Source of the DNA: Gemmatimonadales bacterium
GTDB taxonomy: Bacteria; Gemmatimonadota; Gemmatimonadetes; Gemmatimonadales; GWC2-71-9
Direction: 5' to 3'
Assembly: GCA_041613315.1 (NCBI GenBank)
Contig: JBFJHJ010000008.1
Coordinates: 20,544-84,543, forward strand
Length of the DNA: 64,000 nt
Each line of letters begins with the position of its first letter. Position 1 is the stretch's first letter. Position numbers and translations under genes: made by a program. This document shows, piece by piece, positions 42,144 through 52,771 of the stretch. The notes under the pieces were generated by a model, which was not told where the DNA came from, made no database searches, and saw nothing but the letters and a program-made list of their open reading frames with translations.

Positions 42144-43255
42144 CGGGCGGCGCGCTCCTGCGGATCCGTGAGATGGTGACCAAAGAGCTGCGCCAGCTCT
42201 TCCGGGATCCCCGCACCCGGGTCGTCATCTTCGTCGCCCCCATGATCCAACTGGTCATGTTCGGCTACGCGGTGAACACCGACATCCGGCACACCGCGAC
42301 GTGGGTCGTGGACTTGGACGCGACGCCCGAGTCGCGGCGGCTCGTCGACAGCTTCAGCGCCACCGGGTACTTCGAGATCACGGGACGGTCGACGCGTCCC
42401 CGCGACCTCGTCGAGGCGCTGGACAAGGGGGACGCCGTCGTGGGGATCGAGATCCCCGCCGGGTTCCGCCGGCGGCTCGCCAACGGCACGGCGACGGTGC
42501 AGATCCTGCTGGACGGCACCCACTCCAACACCGCGACCGTGGCGCAAGGGTACGCTCAGCGAATCGTGCAGCGCTTCGCCCTAGAGCGCGTATCGGGGCC
42601 TCCCCCCGGCGGCATCGACGTGCAGAGCCGCGCGTGGTACAACCCCAATCTGGAGAGTCGGGTCTACAACGTGCCGGGGGTGATCGGGGTGCTGATTCTC
42701 CTGATGAGCCTCCTCCTCACGGCGCTCGCCGTCGTCCGCGAGCGGGAGCTCGGCACCCTCGACCAGCTGATGGTGAGCCCGTTGCGACCCGAGGAGCTGA
42801 TGCTCGGCAAGACGCTCCCGGTCGCCCTGATCGGCCTGGTGGACCTGGTCCTCATCACGGGCATTGCCATCCTCTGGTTCGGCATCCCGATGCGCGGCTC
42901 GGCCCTGGCCCTGCTCGCCGCGGCCCTGCTGTTCATCTTGGCGGGTCTCTCGATCGGCCTCCTCATCTCGACGATCTCGCGGACGCAGCAGGAGGCCTTC
43001 ATGTCCATGTTCCTGTTCCTGCTCCCGGCCATCATCCTCTCGGGGTTCTTCTATCCCATCGAGAGCATGCCGCTGGGATTCCAGTGGCTCACGCTGCTGA
43101 ACCCGGTCCGCCACTTCCTCGAGATCGTCCGGGCGATCTTCCTGAAGGGGGAGGGTCCGCTCGGCCTGTGGCCCCAGTACCTGGCCCTCGGCGTCACGGC
43201 CCTGTCGGTGCTCCGCCTCGCCGTCCTCCGGTTCCCCAAGACGATCGGCATGTAG
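42140..43255 (+). CDS. ABC-2 permease (YbhR-like)
   Basis: KELRQLFRDP, VVRERELGTLDQLMVSP, LSGFFYPIESMP. Confidence 0.92.
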   Translation: MTGGALLRIREMVTKELRQLFRDPRTRVVIFVAPMIQLVMFGYAVNTDIRHTATWVVDLDATPESRRLVDSFSATGYFEITGRSTRPRDLVEALDKGDAVVGIEIPAGFRRRLANGTATVQILLDGTHSNTATVAQGYAQRIVQRFALERVSGPPPGGIDVQSRAWYNPNLESRVYNVPGVIGVLILLMSLLLTALAVVRERELGTLDQLMVSPLRPEELMLGKTLPVALIGLVDLVLITGIAILWFGIPMRGSALALLAAALLFILAGLSIGLLISTISRTQQEAFMSMFLFLLPAIILSGFFYPIESMPLGFQWLTLLNPVRHFLEIVRAIFLKGEGPLGLWPQYLALGVTALSVLRLAVLRFPKTIGM

Positions 43256-43299
43256 CGGCCCTCCTGCCCCTCCTCCCCGTTGTTGCTATCTTGCGATTC

Positions 43300-44052
43300 A
43301 TGCATCCTGACGCCGCTCCGCCGGAGGGCCCCCTCTACACCCTCCGCGACATCGCCCGCGAGCTCGGGCTGCCGGAGTCCACGGTGCGCTACTACCGCGA
43401 CGCCTTCGCCGGCCACCTGCCGGCCGTCGGCAGCGGACGCCGCCGCCGCTACCCGCCCGAGGCCGTGGACGTGCTCCGCACGGTGGCCGAAGGGTTTGCT
43501 GAAGGTCGCCGCCGCGAACAGATCGAGTATGCGCTGGGAGGCCCGGCCACGGCCGTGCAGGACGACGCCGTCGAGGAGACGGCCGTACGCCTCGTGGCGT
43601 CGCGACTCCCGGCGCCGGCATACGAGGATCTCCTCGCCACGATCCTGGACGGTGAGCGCGAGCGCCGCGAGGCGATGTGGCAGATGGCGCGCGAGATCGT
43701 GCGGCTGGGTGAGGCGATCGAGCGCCAGCACGGGCTCCTGAGCGACGTCGCCGGACAGCTCGTTCGGCAATCTCGCCCCGCCCTGCCCGCGCCGGAGGGC
43801 GAGGACGAGGCCGACGGGGAGACAGTCGGCGGCATCGATCCCAAAGCGCTCGAGCGGGAGCTGGACGCCCTCCGTGCCCAGCTCGAGCAGGAGCGAGAGC
43901 TGGTCGAGCGGCTGCGGCGCTCGCGGCTCGCGTTCGAGCGCCGCGCCACGGAGGCGGAGGAGCGCCTGGAGGAATCGGAGACGCGTCGCCGCGGCGGGAT
44001 CCTCGGACGGCTCAGATCCCAGGAACCGCCGGGACCGGCGGCCGGGACGTAG
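43300..44052 (+). CDS. MerR-type HTH + coiled-coil protein
   Basis: YTLRDIARELGLPESTVRYY...GRRRRY; C-terminal heptads; extended -10 TGcTATCTT 7 nt before the ATG. Confidence 0.82.
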   Translation: MHPDAAPPEGPLYTLRDIARELGLPESTVRYYRDAFAGHLPAVGSGRRRRYPPEAVDVLRTVAEGFAEGRRREQIEYALGGPATAVQDDAVEETAVRLVASRLPAPAYEDLLATILDGERERREAMWQMAREIVRLGEAIERQHGLLSDVAGQLVRQSRPALPAPEGEDEADGETVGGIDPKALERELDALRAQLEQERELVERLRRSRLAFERRATEAEERLEESETRRRGGILGRLRSQEPPGPAAGT

Positions 44053-44059
44053 CCACCCC

Positions 44060-44716
44060 GTGCGGCGCCGCCGGGATCCTCGCGTCCTGCGCATGGTGCG
44101 CCGCCACCTCGCCGCCCGGGGGATCACCGACCGGCGGGTCCTCGCCGCCTTGGCGTCGGTGCCGCGGGAGCGGTTCGTGCCGCCGGCGCTCGCCCTCCAG
44201 GCGTATGACGACGCGCCGCTGCCCATCGGTCACGACCAGACCATCTCGCAACCGTACATCGTGGCACTCATGACCCAAGAGGCGCGGCTTGGCCGGCGCT
44301 CGACCGTCTTGGAGGTCGGCACCGGTTCCGGGTACCACACGGCCGTGCTCGCCCGGATTGCCCGCCACGTGTGGAGCATCGAGCGCGTGGCGACGCTCTC
44401 CGAAGAGGCGCGGGGTCGCCTGCAGGCGCTGGAGATCACCAACGTCACACTCATCGTGGGCGACGGCGGGGGCGGGTATCCCGCCGCGGCGCCGTACGAC
44501 GCGATCGTGGTCGCGGCCGCCGCCCCGCGCCCGCCCGTGCCGCTCACGGCACAGCTCGCGATCGGGGGACGGCTGGTCGTTCCCATCGGCGATCGCGCGC
44601 TGCAGGACCTCACCGTCGTCCAGCGCACCGCCGCCGGCTTCCGCCAACACACCGCGGGCCCGTGCCGGTTCGTGCCGCTCGTCTCGCCCGAGGGGTTCGG
44701 GCCCGGCGAGGAGTGA
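44060..44716 (+). CDS. pcm: Protein-L-isoaspartate O-methyltransferase
   Basis: VPRERFV, QTISQPYIV, VLEVGTGSGY, APYDAIVV; start GTG 44060 or ATG 44093. Confidence 0.93.
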   Translation: MRRRRDPRVLRMVRRHLAARGITDRRVLAALASVPRERFVPPALALQAYDDAPLPIGHDQTISQPYIVALMTQEARLGRRSTVLEVGTGSGYHTAVLARIARHVWSIERVATLSEEARGRLQALEITNVTLIVGDGGGGYPAAAPYDAIVVAAAAPRPPVPLTAQLAIGGRLVVPIGDRALQDLTVVQRTAAGFRQHTAGPCRFVPLVSPEGFGPGEE

Positions 44717-45606
44717 CCGCTCGGCCCCTGTTGGGCGCCCACGTGTCGACGCAGGGCGGCGTGTCGACCGCTCCAGCCCGTGGCACGGCGATCGGCGCGA
44801 CCGCCATCCAAATCTTCACCAAGACCCCGAGCCAGTGGCGCGAGCCCGTCCTGCCCGCAGCGGAAATCGCCGCCTTCCAGTGCGCCCGCCGGCGGGCGCG
44901 CATGCGCGCGGTGGTGGCACACGACTCGTATCTCATCAACCTCGCGTCGCCCGATCCCCGACTCCGCCGTCGCTCCCTCACGTGCTTCGTGGGCGAGCTC
45001 ACACGGTGCCGCGACCTCGGCATCCCCTATCTGGTGACGCATCCCGGTAACTGCATGGACGACCGCGCCGCGGGGCTGCGACGCAACGCCGACGCGTACG
45101 CCGAGTGTCTCGCATGCGTCGACGGTCCCACCATCCTGATCGAGACGACGGCCGGATCCGGCACCGCGCTGGGAGCCCGGTTCGAGGAACTCGCCGCGCT
45201 GCGGGCGGGTATTCCCGGAGGCCTGCGGGCGCGCGTCGGCTTCTGCGCCGACACCTGCCATCTCTTCGCAGCCGGCTACGATCTCCGGGCGGCGTGGGAC
45301 GACGTGTGGCGGGAGTGGGACCGCGTGATCGGCCTGGAGTATCTGAGGTGCATGCACCTCAATGACTCGAAGACGCCATTCGGATCCCGGCGCGACCGCC
45401 ACGAGCTGATCGGCGAGGGGACGCTTGGTCCGGGGCCGTTTCGGCGTCTGATGCGGGACCGCCGGTTCCGGGGTATCATCAAGGTGATCGAGACCCCCAA
45501 AGGCGACGATCCCGTCCGTCAGGACCGGCGCATGCTTCGACGGTTGCGTGCCTACGGGCGAGGGAAGCGGGTCGGGAAGAAGCGGCGGCCGCGCGGGCAG
45601 CAATAG
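44713..45606 (+). CDS. nfo: Endonuclease IV
   Basis: LGAHVS..GG, QIFTK, HDSYLINLAS, HPG, ETTAG, DTCHLFAAGY, HLNDSK, DRHELIG. Confidence 0.95.
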   Translation: MTARPLLGAHVSTQGGVSTAPARGTAIGATAIQIFTKTPSQWREPVLPAAEIAAFQCARRRARMRAVVAHDSYLINLASPDPRLRRRSLTCFVGELTRCRDLGIPYLVTHPGNCMDDRAAGLRRNADAYAECLACVDGPTILIETTAGSGTALGARFEELAALRAGIPGGLRARVGFCADTCHLFAAGYDLRAAWDDVWREWDRVIGLEYLRCMHLNDSKTPFGSRRDRHELIGEGTLGPGPFRRLMRDRRFRGIIKVIETPKGDDPVRQDRRMLRRLRAYGRGKRVGKKRRPRGQQ

Positions 45607-45622
45607 GAGAAAGGTGAGCTCC

Positions 45623-46798
45623 ATGGATGGCATGCAACGACGCGGACGGGTGCTGGCGCTGGTGTGGACGGCGCTCGCGCTCCTCGCCGCCGCGGCCTCG
45701 CCGCTCGGGGCGCAGGGGCGCCAAGCGCCCACTCGGCTGATCCTGCTCATCGGTGACGGCGTCGGGGTCAGCTATTGGACCGCTGCACTGTTCGCCGCCG
45801 ACAAGCTCGCCGTGCAGGAGTTCCCCGTCGTGGGCCTCGTGGACACGCGCGCGTCCAACAGCAAGGTGACCGACAGCGCCGCCGCCGCCACGGCATACGC
45901 GTCCGGCGTCCGCACGTTCAACGGCGCGATCGGCCTGGCGTCGGACTCCACGCCGGTCGAGACCGTGTTGGAAGTGGCGACGGCCCGCGGCATGGCGACC
46001 GGGTTGGTAGCGACCTCCCGCATCACGCATGCGACACCCGCCGCGTTCGCCGCCCACGTACCGGACCGGAACATGGAATGGGAGATCGCGCGACAGATGG
46101 CCGATCACCGGGTCACGGTGCTCCTGGGTGGCGGGCGCGCGCTCTTCTCCAGCGCGTACCGGCCCGACTCCACCGACCTCCTGGGCCCGATCCGCCGGCG
46201 CGCCACGTATATCGAGACGCCCGAGGAGCTCCGGGCCCTCAACCTGGCCCGCGTGAAATCCCTGTTCGGGCTCTTCACCCTGAGTCACATGCCCGCCGCG
46301 ATCACGCGGCAGCCGGTGGCCGCGGATTCGGCTGCCGACTCCGCGTGGGTCCCAACGCGCACGCCCACGCTGCCCGAAATGACGCGCACCGCCCTCGGCG
46401 TGCTCGACCGCGACCCGCAGGGATTCTTCCTGATGGTGGAGGGTTCTCAGCCCGACTGGCGCGGCCATGCCAACGAGCCTCTGGAGACCATCGTCGCGGA
46501 GATGCTCGACTTCGATGGTGCCCTTCGCGAGGCCCTCGACTATCAGGCGCGCCGGCCCGAAACACTCATCGTGGTGGTGGCCGATCACGAGACCGGCGGG
46601 CTGGCCGTCCAATTCGACTCGACCGGCACCCTCGTCGCCGCGTACACGACCATTTCACATACGGCCCAACTCATCCCGCTCTTCGCGCGCGGGCCGGGCG
46701 CCGATCGGTTCGCCGGACTCAAGCCCATCGACGAGGTGGGCCGATTGTTGTTGGACGTCGTGCGCGCCGGCACCGGCCCGCGACGCGCCAGCCAGTGA
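45623..46798 (+). CDS. Alkaline phosphatase (PhoA family)
   Basis: Signal peptide; LIGDG, VTDSAAAATA, THATPAAF, FFLMVEG..DWRGH, ADHETGG. Confidence 0.92.
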   Translation: MDGMQRRGRVLALVWTALALLAAAASPLGAQGRQAPTRLILLIGDGVGVSYWTAALFAADKLAVQEFPVVGLVDTRASNSKVTDSAAAATAYASGVRTFNGAIGLASDSTPVETVLEVATARGMATGLVATSRITHATPAAFAAHVPDRNMEWEIARQMADHRVTVLLGGGRALFSSAYRPDSTDLLGPIRRRATYIETPEELRALNLARVKSLFGLFTLSHMPAAITRQPVAADSAADSAWVPTRTPTLPEMTRTALGVLDRDPQGFFLMVEGSQPDWRGHANEPLETIVAEMLDFDGALREALDYQARRPETLIVVVADHETGGLAVQFDSTGTLVAAYTTISHTAQLIPLFARGPGADRFAGLKPIDEVGRLLLDVVRAGTGPRRASQ

Positions 46799-46820
46799 CC
46801 GCGATCGCGAGTCAGAGCGG

Positions 46821-47156
46821 ATGAGCGCCACGGCCGCCATCAAGCGCCGCCGGGCGGCACTCGTCGCCGCCGTGCTGTATCTGGGCTCGGCCGGGGCCGC
46901 GCCGCTGGTGCACGCGGCCGTGGAGGCGTCGCGCGCCACACCGGCCGTGGAGCGCGCGCACAGCGACCTGTGTCCCCGCATCCACTGCGAGGCCGCGTGT
47001 CCCAGTGGGGCGACCCTGCTCCCCCCGCGCGCGCCGGCGCCGACCCATGAGTTCGTCGCCGCCGCAGCGACCGGATGCCGCCCCTCGAAGGGAGTCACCC
47101 CACCCCGCTCGTCCGGAACCCCGCCGCACGCCGTCCGCGCGCCACCTGCCCGGTAA
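46821..47156 (+). CDS. DUF2946/CruR-like leader protein with C-terminal RAPP motif (111 aa)
   Basis: Basic-hydrophobic N-terminus, HSDLCPRIHCEAAC, Pro-rich tail ending VRAPPAR; directly upstream of the metal-uptake genes. Confidence 0.72.
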   Translation: MSATAAIKRRRAALVAAVLYLGSAGAAPLVHAAVEASRATPAVERAHSDLCPRIHCEAACPSGATLLPPRAPAPTHEFVAAAATGCRPSKGVTPPRSSGTPPHAVRAPPAR

Positions 47157-47244
47157 CCCTCACGCCTCATGGTTCGGCGTCGGGCACGTTCCGGGCGCCG
47201 GCGACACCCGTGAAGTCCCCTTGGCTGCGAGGATAGCAGTGAAC

Positions 47245-48510
47245 ATGCGCATCGCATTACTGGTCTTGATCGCGCTCGGCACCGGAGCCGTCGCACCGGC
47301 CGTGGCGGCCGCCCAGGGCCTGGAGCAGCGGACCGATTCGCTCGAGCGCGAAATCCGGCTTCTGCGGGCCCGAATCGACTCGTTGGTACGCGTGCTCGAG
47401 CGCCTCACACGCGAAGACCGCGACACCACCCCGGCGCGCGACGAGTTGGCGGCGCTCCGGGCCGCCGCCAGGGCGGCCGCGGCCCGCCCCGATACGGCCC
47501 AGGCCCCGGAACCGCAGTTCGTCAACCGGGCTGACAACCTGAACCGCCTCAACCCCGAGATCAGCGTCACGGGGGACGTACGCTTCACGGCAACCAGGCC
47601 CGGGCCGCAGCAGGACAATGTGGACCTCCGCGAGTTCGAGTTCTCCTTCCAGTCCGCGCTCGATCCCTTCGCCCGCACCAAGATCTTCCTCGCGTTCGAA
47701 GAAGGGGAGATCGACCTGGAGGAGGCGTACGCGTACTGGACCGGCCTGCCCGGCGGGTTCCGAATCGATGCGGGCCGGCTCCGCCAGCAGGTGGGCGAGC
47801 TCAACCGCTGGCACTTGCACGCGCTTCCGGAATCGGAGTACCCGCTCGTGCTTCGGGAGTACTTCGGCGAGGAAGGGCTCATCGGCAACGGGCTGCGCGT
47901 ATACTGGCTCGCGCCGTTCAGCGGTGTCGGGACAGGTACCCATGAGCTGTGGGGCGAGGTGACCGTTGCGGACAACGACGTGCTGTTCGACGGCGGGAAC
48001 CGCCTCGCGGTTCTCGGTCACGTCAAGAACTTCTGGCAGGTGAGCCGCTCCGTCTTCGTCCAGCTGGGGGGCACGGCAATGTACGGCCGCAACCCCGACG
48101 CCGACCTCCGCACCCGGGTGTTGGGCGGTGACGTTCGGTTGTCGTGGCGCCCCCCGGCTGACGCGTTATACCGGTCGTTCACGCTGCGCGGGGAGGGTTA
48201 CGCGGTGCGGCGACTGGACGCCGGCGTTGGGGACACCCGCTACGGCGGCTACGTGAGCGCCGAGTATCAGCTTTCCCGTCGCCTGTTCCTCGGCGGCCGC
48301 TTGGACTACGTCGAGCCGCTCGGCACGGCGGATCCCGCCACGTGGGCCGTGGTGCCGAGACTCACGTGGTGGCAGAGCGAGTGGGTGTATCTCAAGGCCG
48401 AGTGGCAACGCGCCTCGACGCCCCTGGCCGGCGGCGGGCGCGACACGAGCGATCGGTTTGTCCTTCAGGCGGTCTGGGCCATCGGACCGCACAAACACGA
48501 GACGTACTGA
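47245..48510 (+). CDS. Outer-membrane beta-barrel (porin-like) associated with metal uptake
   Basis: Signal peptide, short coiled coil, LNPEISV, alternating beta strands, His-containing C-terminus IGPHKHETY. Confidence 0.75.
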   Translation: MRIALLVLIALGTGAVAPAVAAAQGLEQRTDSLEREIRLLRARIDSLVRVLERLTREDRDTTPARDELAALRAAARAAAARPDTAQAPEPQFVNRADNLNRLNPEISVTGDVRFTATRPGPQQDNVDLREFEFSFQSALDPFARTKIFLAFEEGEIDLEEAYAYWTGLPGGFRIDAGRLRQQVGELNRWHLHALPESEYPLVLREYFGEEGLIGNGLRVYWLAPFSGVGTGTHELWGEVTVADNDVLFDGGNRLAVLGHVKNFWQVSRSVFVQLGGTAMYGRNPDADLRTRVLGGDVRLSWRPPADALYRSFTLRGEGYAVRRLDAGVGDTRYGGYVSAEYQLSRRLFLGGRLDYVEPLGTADPATWAVVPRLTWWQSEWVYLKAEWQRASTPLAGGGRDTSDRFVLQAVWAIGPHKHETY

Positions 48511-48520
48511 GCACACGATC

Positions 48521-49579
48521 ATGCCTCGATTCCTGCGTATCGCGTACGCCCTGACCGCCCTGGCCGTCTCGTTGAGCGGTGCCGCCGCAGCGCAAGGCGA
48601 GCCCATCCGCGTGGTGACGTCCCTGAGCACCTACGCGGCGATCGCCCGTGAGATTGCGGGCGATCGCGCCGAGGTCGCGTCCATCGCCGAGGGCGACGAG
48701 AACCCACACTTCGTCCAGCCGAAACCCAGCTTCGTGCTCCTGCTCCGGCGCGCGGATTTGTTCGTCACGACAGGACTCGACCTCGAGCTGTGGGTGCCCG
48801 CCCTGGTGGACAAGGCCAGCAACCCGCGGATTCGCAGCGGGCAGCCCGGCTTCGTCACGGCCTACCCGGGGATCCGGCTGCTGAACGTGCCGGCCGCCGT
48901 GAGCCGCTCCGAGGGCGATATCCACCTCTTCGGGAATCCCCACATCTGGACCGACCCCGCCAACGCCATCATCATCGGCGGCAACATCCTCACCGGGCTC
49001 AAACGGGTGTCCCCGGCGAACACCGACCTGTTCGAGCGGCGGTTCCAGGCGTGGAAGGTCCGCGTGCTTCGCGCCTACGTCGGCGATTCCCTCGTCCAGC
49101 TCTTGAGCGCGGACGTCGTGTTCGACCTCGCCCGGGAAGGCACGTTGCGCAGTTTCCTCCGGTCGCAGTCGTATCAGGGGCGACCGCTGGCCGACCGGGT
49201 CGGCGGGTGGCTCGCGCAGAGCGCGGCCTTCGACGGACGGGAGATGGTCTGCTACCACAAGGAGTGGGACTACTTCAGCCGCGCGTTCGGCGTCCCGTGT
49301 GTCGACTACGTCGAACCCAAACCCGGCATCCCACCCACGCCCCGCCACGTGGCGGAAATCATCTCGCTGATGCGCGAGCGGCGCATCCCGGTGCTGTTCT
49401 CGACGAACTACTACGACCGCAACCAGGTCCAGTCCGTGGCGCAGCGGACGGGCGCCACCGCGGTCATCGTTCCATCCAACACCGGTGGGGCGCCCGGCAC
49501 CGACACCTACATCGCCCTCGTCTCCCAGTGGATCCGGGAGCTGGCCAAAGGGTTCGGCGGCGCGGCCGCAGCGCCCTGA
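48521..49579 (+). CDS. Zn/Mn ABC substrate-binding protein (ZnuA/TroA family)
   Basis: ENPHFVQP, GLDLE.W, DIHLFGNPHIWTDP, YHKEWDYF, EPKPGIPP. Confidence 0.9.
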   Translation: MPRFLRIAYALTALAVSLSGAAAAQGEPIRVVTSLSTYAAIAREIAGDRAEVASIAEGDENPHFVQPKPSFVLLLRRADLFVTTGLDLELWVPALVDKASNPRIRSGQPGFVTAYPGIRLLNVPAAVSRSEGDIHLFGNPHIWTDPANAIIIGGNILTGLKRVSPANTDLFERRFQAWKVRVLRAYVGDSLVQLLSADVVFDLAREGTLRSFLRSQSYQGRPLADRVGGWLAQSAAFDGREMVCYHKEWDYFSRAFGVPCVDYVEPKPGIPPTPRHVAEIISLMRERRIPVLFSTNYYDRNQVQSVAQRTGATAVIVPSNTGGAPGTDTYIALVSQWIRELAKGFGGAAAAP

Positions 49580-49603
49580 GCGTACTCACCAAAGGCACGC
49601 CGC

Positions 49604-50434
49604 ATGTCCGATCTGCTGCAGTTGATGGTCGCTCCGTTCGCCGCATGCATGGTACTGGTCGCCATGCTCGCCTACCTCGGCGTGCACGTCATCGCGCGCG
49701 AGGTGATCTTTGTCGATCTGTCGTTGGCGCAGATGGCGGCGCTTGGAAGCACCCTGGCCTTACTCTTCGGCGTCGCGCCGGATTCGGCGTTGGGCTATGG
49801 CTTCGCACTCGCCGCGACGACCCTGGGCGCCTTCATCTTCGCGATGACGCGCACCGTCAGGGCCCGTCAGCGCGTCCCACACGAGGCGATCATCGGCATC
49901 GTGTTCGTCGTCGCCTCGGCGGCCGCCATCCTCGTCGCGGATCGCGCACCCCGAGGAGGCGAGGCCATCAAGGAGGTGCTGGTGGGCAGCATCCTCTGGG
50001 TCACCTGGTCCGACATCCTGCAGATGGCGCTCGTGTATGTCGCTATCGGGCTGTTTCACTGGGTGTTCCGGCATCGGTTCCTCACGATTTCCCTCCACGA
50101 GGACACCGCGCTGTCACAAGGGTGGAATATCCGCGCCTGGGATTTCCTGTTCTACGTGTCGTTTGGGATCGCCATCACGCTCGCCGTCCCCATTGCGGGC
50201 GTGCTGCTCGTCTTCACCTTCCTCGTGGTCCCGGCCGTCGTCGCCTTCCTGTTCGCACGTCAGACAGCAGCGCTGATCGCGATCAGCTGGGTAGCGTCGG
50301 CGGTGGCATCGGCCGCGGGGCTCGTCATCTCCTTTCAGTTCGACCTGCCTACGGGTCCGCTGATCGTGTGCGTGTTCGGGGTCGTGCTGCTGGCGGCCGG
50401 GGCGGTCCGGCACCTCGCGCCATCCGCCGCGTGA
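49604..50434 (+). CDS. Metal ABC permease (ZnuB/ABC-3 family)
   Basis: YLGVHVIAREVIFVDLSLAQ, EAIIGI, GVLLVFTFLVVPA, DLPTGP. Confidence 0.9.
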   Translation: MSDLLQLMVAPFAACMVLVAMLAYLGVHVIAREVIFVDLSLAQMAALGSTLALLFGVAPDSALGYGFALAATTLGAFIFAMTRTVRARQRVPHEAIIGIVFVVASAAAILVADRAPRGGEAIKEVLVGSILWVTWSDILQMALVYVAIGLFHWVFRHRFLTISLHEDTALSQGWNIRAWDFLFYVSFGIAITLAVPIAGVLLVFTFLVVPAVVAFLFARQTAALIAISWVASAVASAAGLVISFQFDLPTGPLIVCVFGVVLLAAGAVRHLAPSAA

Positions 50435-50506
50435 CGCCGCGCTCTTCCGTCGCTCCGGGCGCTGCGGCACCTTAGGGAACCTTTGACACGCGAGCACTGC
50501 TGAGGC

Positions 50507-52771
50507 ATGCCCCTTCGCCCACAGGACGCCCTCGATTATCACGCCCAGGGCCGACCCGGCAAGATCCAGGTCACGTCCACCAAGCCGTTCAAAGATCAGC
50601 GGGATCTCTCCCTCGCCTATACGCCGGGCGTGGCCGAGCCCTGCCGCGCGATCCGCGACAACCCACTCGACGCCTATCGCTACACCGCGAAGGGAAACCT
50701 GGTGGCGGTCGTCTCGAACGGGACGGCCGTCCTGGGACTCGGCAACATCGGCGCCCTCGCCGGCAAGCCGGTGATGGAGGGCAAGGGGATGCTGTTCAAG
50801 CATTTCGCCGACATCGATGTGTTCGACCTCGAAGTGGGGTCCGAAGAGCCGGACGATGTGATCCGCTTCTGTCAGTTGCTCGAACCGACCGTGGGCGGCA
50901 TCAACCTCGAGGACATCCGGGCGCCCGATTGCTTCGTGGTCGAAGAGCGGCTGCGAGAGACGCTGTCCATTCCCGTGTTCCACGACGATCAGCACGGCAC
51001 CGCGATCATCACGGGGGCGGCGTTGCTCAACGCGCTCCGGATCGTGGAGAAGGAGATCGCGGATGTGAAGATCGTCTTCGCCGGCGCCGGGGCAGCGGCG
51101 GTGGCCTCGGCGGAGCACTATGTCCGCCTCGGCGTACCGCGAGAGCACATCTTCATGTTCGACAAGGACGGTGTGCTGCACGCCGACCGCACGGATCTCG
51201 ACCGCTACCGCCGACGCTTTGCGCAGGACACCCCGGCGCGGGACCTGACCGGTCTGATCGAGGGCGCCGACGTCTTCGTCGGACTGTCGGTGGGCAACCT
51301 CGTAACGCCAGCGATGCTTCGCGCGATGGCGGCCCGGCCGATCGTGTTCGCGTTGGCCAACCCCGTCCCGGAAATCACCCCGGAGGAGGTGGCCGCGGTC
51401 CGCGACGACGCGATCGTCGCCACGGGCCGGTCCGATTACCCGAACCAGGTCAACAACGTCCTCGGGTTTCCGTTCATCTTCCGAGGCGCGCTCGACGTCG
51501 AAGCGCAGGCCATCAACGAGGACATGAAAATGGCGGCCACGCGCGCCCTGGCGGCGTTGGCCCGGGAGGACGTGCCCGACGCCGTGATGCGGGCCTATGG
51601 GGTCGACCAGCTCCGCTTCGGGCCCGACTACATCATCCCCAAACCGTTCGATCCCCGGGTCTTGTTGTGGGTGGCGCCTGCCGTGGCCGAAGCGGCGATG
51701 ATCTCGGGGGTCGCCCGCGTGGAGGTCGATTTCGAGCAGTACCGGGCGACGCTGGAGGGGCGCCTGGGACGGGCGCGCGCGGTCATGCGCGGCCTCATGG
51801 GCCGGGCGATCGCCGCCACCCAACGGATCGTGTTTCCGGAGGGCGAGCTGCCGCGGATCATCCGCGCGGCGCGCATCCTCGTGGACGAGTGCATCGCCCA
51901 CCCCATGCTCTTGGGAAGCCGCCGGCGGATCGAGCAGGAAGCGGGTGAGTTGGGGCTGGAACTGGACGGGGTCGAGATCCTCGATCCCGACGAGTCGCCC
52001 CGGCGTGAGACGTATGCCCGCGCCTTCTGGGACCGCCGCCGGCGCAAGGGGATCACTCTCGCGGAAGCCCGGACGCGCTTGCGCCAGCCGATCTACTACG
52101 GGTGCATGATGCTCGACGCGGGCGACGCCGAGGCGCTGGTCGCCGGCGATGACATGTACTACCCGGAGACGATCCGGCCGGCGCTCGAGACCATCGGCAT
52201 GGCGGGCGACCAGGGCGCGATCTGCAGCATTTACATGATGATCCTCCCGCAAGAGACGTACTTCTTCGCCGATTGCACGGTGAACATCGAGCCCGATGCC
52301 GAGCGCCTGGCGCGGATCGCGTCCGCGACGGCCCACTTCGTATGGCATCTCGGGATCGAGCCCCGGGTCGCCATGCTCTCCTTCTCGAACTTCGGCTCCG
52401 CCCGGCATGCGCACTCGGAGCGCGTCGCCGAGGCGGTGCGCCTGTTACACGAGCGGGAGCCCCAGCTCATGGTGGACGGCGAGATGCAGGCGGACGCCGC
52501 GGTGAGCGACGCGATCCTGAAGGAGCGTTATCCCTTCGCCAAGCTGCGGACGGCCGCCAATGTGTTAATTTTCCCTGACCTGAACGCCGCCAACATCGCG
52601 TACAAGCTGCTCATGCGCTTGGGCGGCGCTCAGGCCATCGGCCCCATTCTGGTGGGCATGGCGAAGCCGGTCCATGTGCTCCAGCGGGGCTCGGACGTCA
52701 GCGACATCGTGAATATGTCGGTGATTGCGGCAGTGGATGCGCAGGAGCGTGCGCGCCACGGCCATGCCTAG
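50507..52771 (+). CDS. maeB: NADP-dependent malic enzyme with PTA domain
   Basis: [39 protein letters not shown]-terminal PTA domain (DGEMQAD, NIAYKL). Confidence 0.96.

Follow-up and report, generated by a model that had tools for sequence, protein, structure and literature searches.

A conserved RAPP-ending leader peptide ahead of a porin-ZnuA-ZnuB operon in Gemmatimonadota is a candidate nascent-chain zinc sensor

The window, by which we mean the whole 64,000-nucleotide stretch of Gemmatimonadales DNA analysed here, carries on its + strand a 111-aa open reading frame (46821..47156) followed by genes for a 16-strand porin (47239..48510), a ZnuA-family binding protein (48521..49579) and a ZnuB-type (ABC-3) permease (49604..50434). 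ORF translation and comparison with homologues mark the small frame, which we call the leader, as a candidate DUF2946/CruR-like RAPP arrest peptide. It starts 22 nt past the stop codon of an alkaline phosphatase gene. This gene occupies positions 44650-46798, just 5' of the leader, together with a gene whose motifs suggest an endonuclease IV-like protein. Endonuclease IV and alkaline phosphatase are zinc enzymes, and many homologous loci likewise have the endonuclease gene on their upstream side. A predicted protein with a MerR-like helix-turn-helix and a coiled coil, recognized by eye, is encoded at 43255-44052, flanked by a cluster of ABC-2 transporter genes and a gene for a methyltransferase. 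The gene after the permease, at 50507, encodes a malic enzyme.

The first 32 residues of the leader (46821..46916) comprise KRRR, a hydrophobic stretch and a possible VHA-A cleavage site and would act as an export signal or membrane anchor, by appearance of the Sec type. By inspection and hydropathy only, such a hydrophobic stretch was present in 82 of 84 leaders; Tat export was rejected, the S/TRRxFL motif occurring in 0 of 83. Glu44, His47, Cys51, His55 and Cys60 (46950..47000), all conserved alignment columns, form a putative metal site whose His47-Cys60 cluster reads HSDLCPRIHCEAAC. Next come a spacer with 10 Pro within 45 residues, the candidate arrest motif RAPP (47136..47147) and, two residues past it, a TAA stop. 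The window copy has only the first Cys of a CXXC (Cys60-Pro-Ser-Gly), with Gly at the second-Cys site; a CxxxC is present (Cys56-Cys60), Cys56 being unconserved in the family. In the structure model a single helix spans residues 3-36 and the rest is mostly unstructured, at low confidence (pTM 0.39). The leader protein had no Pfam or NCBIfam match, and none to DUF2946 (PF11162) at E up to 1.

At the RNA level, a C-rich stretch ahead of the motif (47061..47135; 37 C vs 21 G), partly a by-product of the Pro codons, is a candidate Rho loading site. The leader tail, the stop codon and the ccctcac behind it (47148..47163) make up a candidate anti-Shine-Dalgarno strand, a pairing zone family-wide that is weak at the window locus. 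According to sequence and folding, the porin ribosome-binding site (47225..47241) has its GAGGA (47229-47233) in local hairpins and includes an in-frame GTG at 47239, which is 6 nt from GAGG, better spaced than the ATG at 47245, and may be the true porin start. From the leader end the gap is 82 nt to this GTG and 88 nt to the ATG. The 171-nt leader-end region was no more structured than its shuffles (z 0.87). The sequence-only reading from which we started had described the 111-aa frame with its KRRR and hydrophobic N-terminus, His/Cys cluster and Pro-rich spacer, all confirmed by translation. It had also placed RAPP two residues ahead of the stop, with 88 nt to the porin ATG, the Shine-Dalgarno (SD) sequence within ctgc-gaggata-gcag and a ccctcac past the stop; each was found as described, the last two at 47225-47239 and 47157-47163.

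The porin had no Pfam or NCBIfam match and was identified by its structure model (pLDDT 87.8), a barrel of 16 strands that has a coiled coil at its N-terminus, by the Foldseek matches of this model, which are porins, and by its ESM Atlas cluster name (score 0.99). We corrected the database label 'zinc-regulated TonB-dependent receptor' accordingly: such a receptor is expected to have 22 strands and a plug, whereas this protein has 16 strands, no plug, porin folds and no TonB Pfam. Named homologues came from Gemmatimonadota; a further search, made to learn how databases name the homologues, returned mostly hypothetical proteins, and no match to the window porin was found on plasmids. Within the family, His190 and His192 are invariant. 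We also observed a conserved His-rich C-terminal tail (GPHKHExY, or GAHxAHxF in other clades) and an inner loop with an invariant N-R-x-H-x-H, for which searching by sequence gave no solved relative. Judged by these residues, the protein is a candidate zinc-selective porin.

The binding protein (PF01297, E 4e-46) has a His-rich site of the zinc type, in which His63, His135, His141, His246, His276 and Glu265 were kept in 91 of 91 sequences. Compared with PsaA it has His at PsaA Glu205 and Asn at PsaA position 280. His-only sites in such binding proteins prefer zinc. The permease matched PF00950 (E 1e-35), and no ATPase gene adjoins the ZnuA/ZnuB genes within the window. An extra 0.6-1 kb between these genes at the homologous loci L061, L063, L065-L068, L093 and L094 may hold one. 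The two Pfam matches and the porin model uphold the earlier statement that the leader, which proved conserved, heads a porin plus a ZnuA/ZnuB-type system; it is a first gene, but of a porin-ZnuA-ZnuB rather than a copper-homeostasis operon.

We wondered whether the leader accompanies homologous porins. Porin homologues were located in 32 of 61 relatives and in 103 of 251 genomes of the phylum, and 96 loci were read, of which six with less than 600 nt of upstream DNA were dropped, leaving 90 including the window locus. Just 5' of the porin and on its strand, R[AG]PP no more than 12 residues from a stop was found at 78 of these 90 Gemmatimonadota loci, as opposed to 1/90 on the opposite strand, 3/90 for A[AG]PP and 6/90 for PP[AG]R; as background, R[AG]PP near a stop occurs in 4.3% of the long ORFs in the genome from which the window comes (77 of 1778). 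Two of the 78 matches are improper leaders, a short junk frame (L073) and a leader with an apparent frameshift between its His/Cys part and RAPP (L081, G150:C95). The 12 misses comprised four RSPP, one TGPP and seven loci without a leader in the region read. A second locus set, whose genomes were partly shared with the first, had the leader at 63 of 68 loci. With a distant porin query in metagenomes it was present at 34 of 35 loci, a set from which 6 of 41 had been dropped, with many near-duplicates and a G+C content of 38-56% where measured. Even a Sulfurovum locus has a HAPP-ending leader, then porin, ZnuA and permease.

Seventy-four leaders could be aligned, with a median pairwise identity of 21% (51 groups at 40%). 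Against this divergence the conserved columns were Glu44 (58), His47 (66), Cys51 (40), His55 (47), Cys60 (73), Arg106 (73) and the Pro-Pro pair (74 of 74). The conservation of RAPP leaders ahead of homologous porins and that of Cys and His residues, which the sequence-only reading had left to be checked, were thus both found. The site of the second CxxC cysteine is Cys in 38 of the 74; in a separate count, CxxC occurred in 45 of 82 leaders, 42-45 residues ahead of the motif in 44 cases. A non-CXXC ligand set had been proposed, which stands for the window copy and some members and fails for the family as a whole. The key Cys precedes the motif Arg by 46-50 residues in 80 of 83 leaders and by 46 in the window copy, the search zone of 35-60 residues having built in some of this narrowing. 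The motif codons vary synonymously, with five Arg, four Ala and four Pro codons in use, and selection therefore acts on the peptide. With an E-value limit of 0.001, a profile of the leader matched 2651 cluster representatives, and within the phylum the leader profile had matches in 101 of 121 genomes; an R[AGS]PP ending was present in 140 of the best 149 of the 2651 matches, query excluded. DUF2946 matched weakly in 16 of the 74 aligned leaders at E up to 1 (best 5.5e-4) and is annotated on 11% of the members of one ESM Atlas neighbour cluster. The leader is real and conserved, and it is probably regulatory. Since the layout of CruR, a DUF2946 protein, is kept (export signal, His47, Cys60 and spacing), the leader looks to be a divergent CruR/CutF-type leader. 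The window protein is left out of DUF2946 itself because it has neither CXXC nor a Pfam match, and from the alignment we read its non-CXXC set as the condition of one sub-clade in a DUF2946-like family that has additional His ligands.

CruR and CutF had been named as the systems for comparison, and the export signal, the His/Cys ligands and the conserved RAPP leader bear out this choice. In CruR (Bp2923) of Bordetella pertussis, Cys90 and Arg139 are the corresponding landmarks and shifting the spacing by five impairs function (PMC9426467); CruR arrests at RAPP in vitro (PMC12992588). The leaders described here resemble it as first genes of a metal-uptake operon, in the export signal, in the Cys-to-RAPP spacing (49 in CruR, 46-50 in the family), in the long intergenic region before an outer-membrane transporter gene and in the predicted direction, with metal turning uptake off. 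They differ in that CruR senses copper via CXXC, precedes a TonB-dependent receptor, acts through Rho and can dispense with its signal peptide, whereas the family in Gemmatimonadota has a His-rich set in which one Cys is near-invariant, heads a porin-ZnuA-ZnuB operon and shows predicted SD pairing in most members. CutF of Rhodobacter capsulatus is likewise described as an exported nascent sensor, with a stalled ribosome opening a stem over the downstream SD (bioRxiv 10.1101/2022.11.11.516240, 10.1101/2025.02.05.636593). Its motif is given as CXXXC and not, as had been stated, CXXC (bioRxiv 10.1101/2025.02.05.636593), an arrangement that the Cys56-Cys60 pair of the window leader shares. CutF differs by stalling at PPP, by its dependence on EF-P and by a copper-induced stall that turns a detoxifying oxidase on, so that an importer leader needs the opposite direction. 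ApdA/ApdP and SecM share the RAPP core near the C-terminus, a localisation signal and an SD-opening output, but they monitor Sec/YidC activity, precede sec genes and have no metal cluster (PMC12992588).

On balance we lean towards the leader being a cis-acting nascent-chain zinc sensor, in which arrest without zinc opens the porin SD and zinc binding releases the ribosome. The leader would be translated while its signal sequence brings the chain to the Sec translocon, and from the motif we infer that the ribosome stalls with RAP in the P-site. We take the first Pro codon of RAPP (47142) to be the expected P-site codon. This assignment is adopted from ApdA/ApdP/CruR (PMC12992588). At the stall the His/Cys cluster, 46 residues back, would be clear of the tunnel and probably of the translocon, so that zinc would be met on the periplasmic side. 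Without zinc the stalled ribosome would cover the leader's last codons, the porin SD would be freed and the operon made. Zinc binding would fold the cluster, pull the chain and release the arrest, whereupon the leader tail would re-pair with the SD and uptake would be off. What does not sit easily with a zinc switch of this kind is that RAPP alone is reported to be insufficient for arrest (PMC12992588), that seven of the 90 loci have no leader in the region read and that CruR works without its signal peptide (PMC9426467).

The family also extends to paralogous leaders. Forty further leader loci were fetched, and 39 downstream frames were scanned (L257 was left out). The frame of L263 was junk and L258 was cut, leaving 37 of 39 loci classed: 29 downstream genes, among L259-L294, are TonB-receptor-like and eight (L255, L256, L260, L272, L277, L278, L280 and L290) TolC-like. 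A CusB/HlyD domain came next at 6 of 6 TolC loci checked. These leaders, which occur across Gemmatimonadota with up to three in a genome, have the ligand pattern and spacing of the porin leaders. Paralogues of uptake and of efflux operons would need opposite outputs.

Because the ligands are common to uptake and efflux paralogues, they name neither the metal nor the direction, and the zinc reading accordingly rests on the operon. The porin has a homologue in Vibrio campbellii (probability 99.7%) within the same three-gene order, with no leader and with two Zur-like palindromes, judged against the Zur site quoted for V. parahaemolyticus (PMC9817125). The omr-znuA2-znuB2 genes of the latter species are reported to be 1034-, 543- and 283-fold up under zinc limitation and to lie within the predicted Zur regulon (PMC9817125); porin homology was established with the V. 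campbellii protein, the V. parahaemolyticus operon being likened by name and gene order. The Gemmatimonadota operon differs from this Vibrio system in having the leader and no such box: a Zur-like box with at most three mismatches to the Vibrio type was found in 2 of 81 leader upstream regions, compared with 19 of 405 shuffles, where a Gemmatimonadota box could differ. The V. campbellii locus L224 lies on a 2.06-Mb record listed as a plasmid (NZ_CP050465.1) that, by its size, looks like chromosome II. An earlier assignment to Zn/Mn uptake therefore keeps its zinc half, through the His-only site and the Vibrio operon, while manganese is less well supported; by this analogy zinc is the most likely ligand metal.

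The same arrest switch might nevertheless answer to another signal, be it copper, nickel, cobalt, manganese or the disulfide or export state of the envelope, and we regard this as unlikely while giving it real weight. Both characterised relatives, CruR and CutF, sense copper, and leaders of similar ligand set among the paralogues precede CusCB-like operons and genes for TonB receptors. CutF has been modelled on disulfide formation (bioRxiv 10.1101/2025.02.05.636593) and Ni or Co binding has been proposed for His-rich CutF-like proteins (bioRxiv 10.1101/2022.11.11.516240), while every downstream gene class that we found is an outer-membrane barrel, as a signal of envelope state would suit. Against such signals speaks the homologous Vibrio operon, with its Zur-like boxes and induction by zinc starvation. 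Manganese is further disfavoured by a binding protein without the Glu/Asp ligands of manganese types, and CxxC is absent from about half of the leaders.

How arrest at RAPP could control the porin was explored at 75 loci with a leader-porin gap of 30-170 nt, where the leader was treated as blocked to 15 nt past the P-site codon. Blocking lowered the opening cost of the porin ribosome-binding site (RBS), the mean drop being 4.9 kcal/mol. Occlusion of the RBS was stronger with the native leader end than with a swapped end at 59 of the 75 loci, and stronger than with a shuffled end at 57, and the native tail-RBS duplex had a median rank of 16/75 compared with 37 for two control pairings. At 44 of the 75 loci the predicted SD partner lies within the leader's last codons; counted from the Arg codon, partner positions peak at +6 to +24 and drop to near zero beyond +25. 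Some of the pairings are long tail-SD stems of unrelated sequence (L017, L033, L054, L080 and L092). Related genomes are non-independent samples and Pro codons are C-rich, which favours pairing with any SD, so the pairing effect is overstated to some degree. These data indicate predicted pairing between leader tail and RBS in most homologues, and a CutF-type SD stem, predicted at the 44 loci above the swap and shuffle controls, is not predicted for the window copy. Here, blocking the leader gave no drop in opening cost (-0.8 kcal/mol), whichever footprint edge and start codon were assumed, and the tail-RBS duplex ranked 29/75, which counts against a zinc switch through SD pairing at this locus. 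The window SD is predicted to be held in local hairpins or to pair with the ccctcac just past the footprint of the stalled ribosome. The suggestion that ccctcac is an anti-SD is thus borne out by one predicted fold, but the element lies just beyond the footprint and blocking the leader does not make this RBS cheaper to open.

A zinc-sensing arrest could also act mainly through Rho-dependent termination, with ribosome release exposing the C-rich site and transcription ending before the porin. This output, which we rate as a somewhat fainter prospect than another signal, may hold for the window copy in particular, where no footprint-sensitive SD stem was found. C exceeds G in the 75 nt ahead of the motif at 99% of the 75 loci, with a mean C skew of 0.25 vs 0.003 in the porin gene, the genome has two Rho-domain genes, and CruR sets a precedent in an uptake operon (PMC9426467). 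Pro codons, however, account for part of the C skew, and long locus-specific tail-SD stems, at L034 and L040 as well as at the loci named above, favour translational control. Rho termination and SD control are not mutually exclusive.

It is improbable, in our estimate, that the peptide has no regulatory role and either serves the importer as a small, secreted metal chaperone or stalls constitutively and so holds the mRNA at the translocon. The export signal and the metal ligands would fit a chaperone and the leader model (pTM 0.39) offers no fold as a test, but a chaperone has no need of a fixed first position in the operon, of a fixed Cys-to-RAPP spacing, of RAPP near the stop or of complementarity between tail and RBS, and RAPP is reported to be strongly avoided in ordinary proteins (PMC12992588). 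A chance ORF in GC-rich DNA, as might be feared at a locus of 70% G+C with RAPP common in shadow frames (77/1778), is refuted by the 2651 profile matches and by the conservation of the leader, whose codons change synonymously over loci that range in G+C content from 38 to 70%, and we give it next to no credence.

The characterised metal-sensing arrest leaders, CruR and CutF, are copper-responsive, and the zinc-sensor reading would extend the switch to zinc uptake. Fujiwara et al. 2025 list RAPP uORFs before metal-homeostasis genes, and the pairing of RAPP leader and porin is among the raw supplement rows listed (PMC12992588, Fig. 4B source data); in the parts of that paper available to us the lists come with no experiment on porin loci and no account of ZnuA/ZnuB, and the word 'zinc' is absent from the main text. 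The context had been called uncharacterised, which remains true of the papers found, apart from these raw table rows. DUF2796 appears in the top-30 RAPP uORF table of the same study (PMC12992588) and is ZrgA, a zinc-uptake protein (PMC9817125). In Caulobacter, the first gene of the czr operon, which Zur activates, belongs to DUF2946 (PMC4176598), and riboswitches for Cu or Zn had not been described according to Roy et al. (PMC9426467). The accessible text of the CutF survey has no occurrence of zinc or porin (bioRxiv 10.1101/2022.11.11.516240), and no publication about an arrest leader linked to zinc turned up in our literature searches, where the supplements of PMC12992588 and bioRxiv may mention the operon type. 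If the leaders respond to zinc, zinc uptake would be controllable after transcription and from outside the cell, and regulation would be accounted for in lineages without a Zur box at the porin-ZnuA-ZnuB operon. As near-identical leaders head importers and exporters, the family provides a natural setting in which to ask how a bound ligand relieves or reinforces arrest at RAPP, a question raised in PMC12992588. More tentatively, we can envisage a nascent-peptide sensor that reads periplasmic zinc through Sec and replaces Zur repression at porin-ZnuAB across phyla, in Gemmatimonadota and other lineages, the His/Cys-spacer-RAPP module having been duplicated within genomes and given opposite outputs, with uptake turned off and efflux on. 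If true, none of the papers found would have described a zinc-responsive arrest peptide before.

Transcription of the leaders was considered as well. A -10-like hexamer 3-14 nt ahead of the start codon was present at 30 of 81 leaders (for example L006, L031, L033, L035 and L090) vs 1 of 90 porin starts, which suggests leaderless transcripts from an unrepressed promoter at those leaders. The window leader has no such hexamer ahead of its start codon, and no sigma-70 promoter was found on the + strand in 45400-50700; its transcription may instead continue from that of the phosphatase gene. The window genome (83% complete) encodes one Fur-family and one DtxR-family protein, either of which could act on an upstream promoter. 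Finally, L021 and L022, which are without the leader, have in common a short conserved stretch (CACATGGAG.TAGC.TGGA) that follows a -10-like element about 100 nt before the porin and may be another kind of control element, one that replaced the leader.
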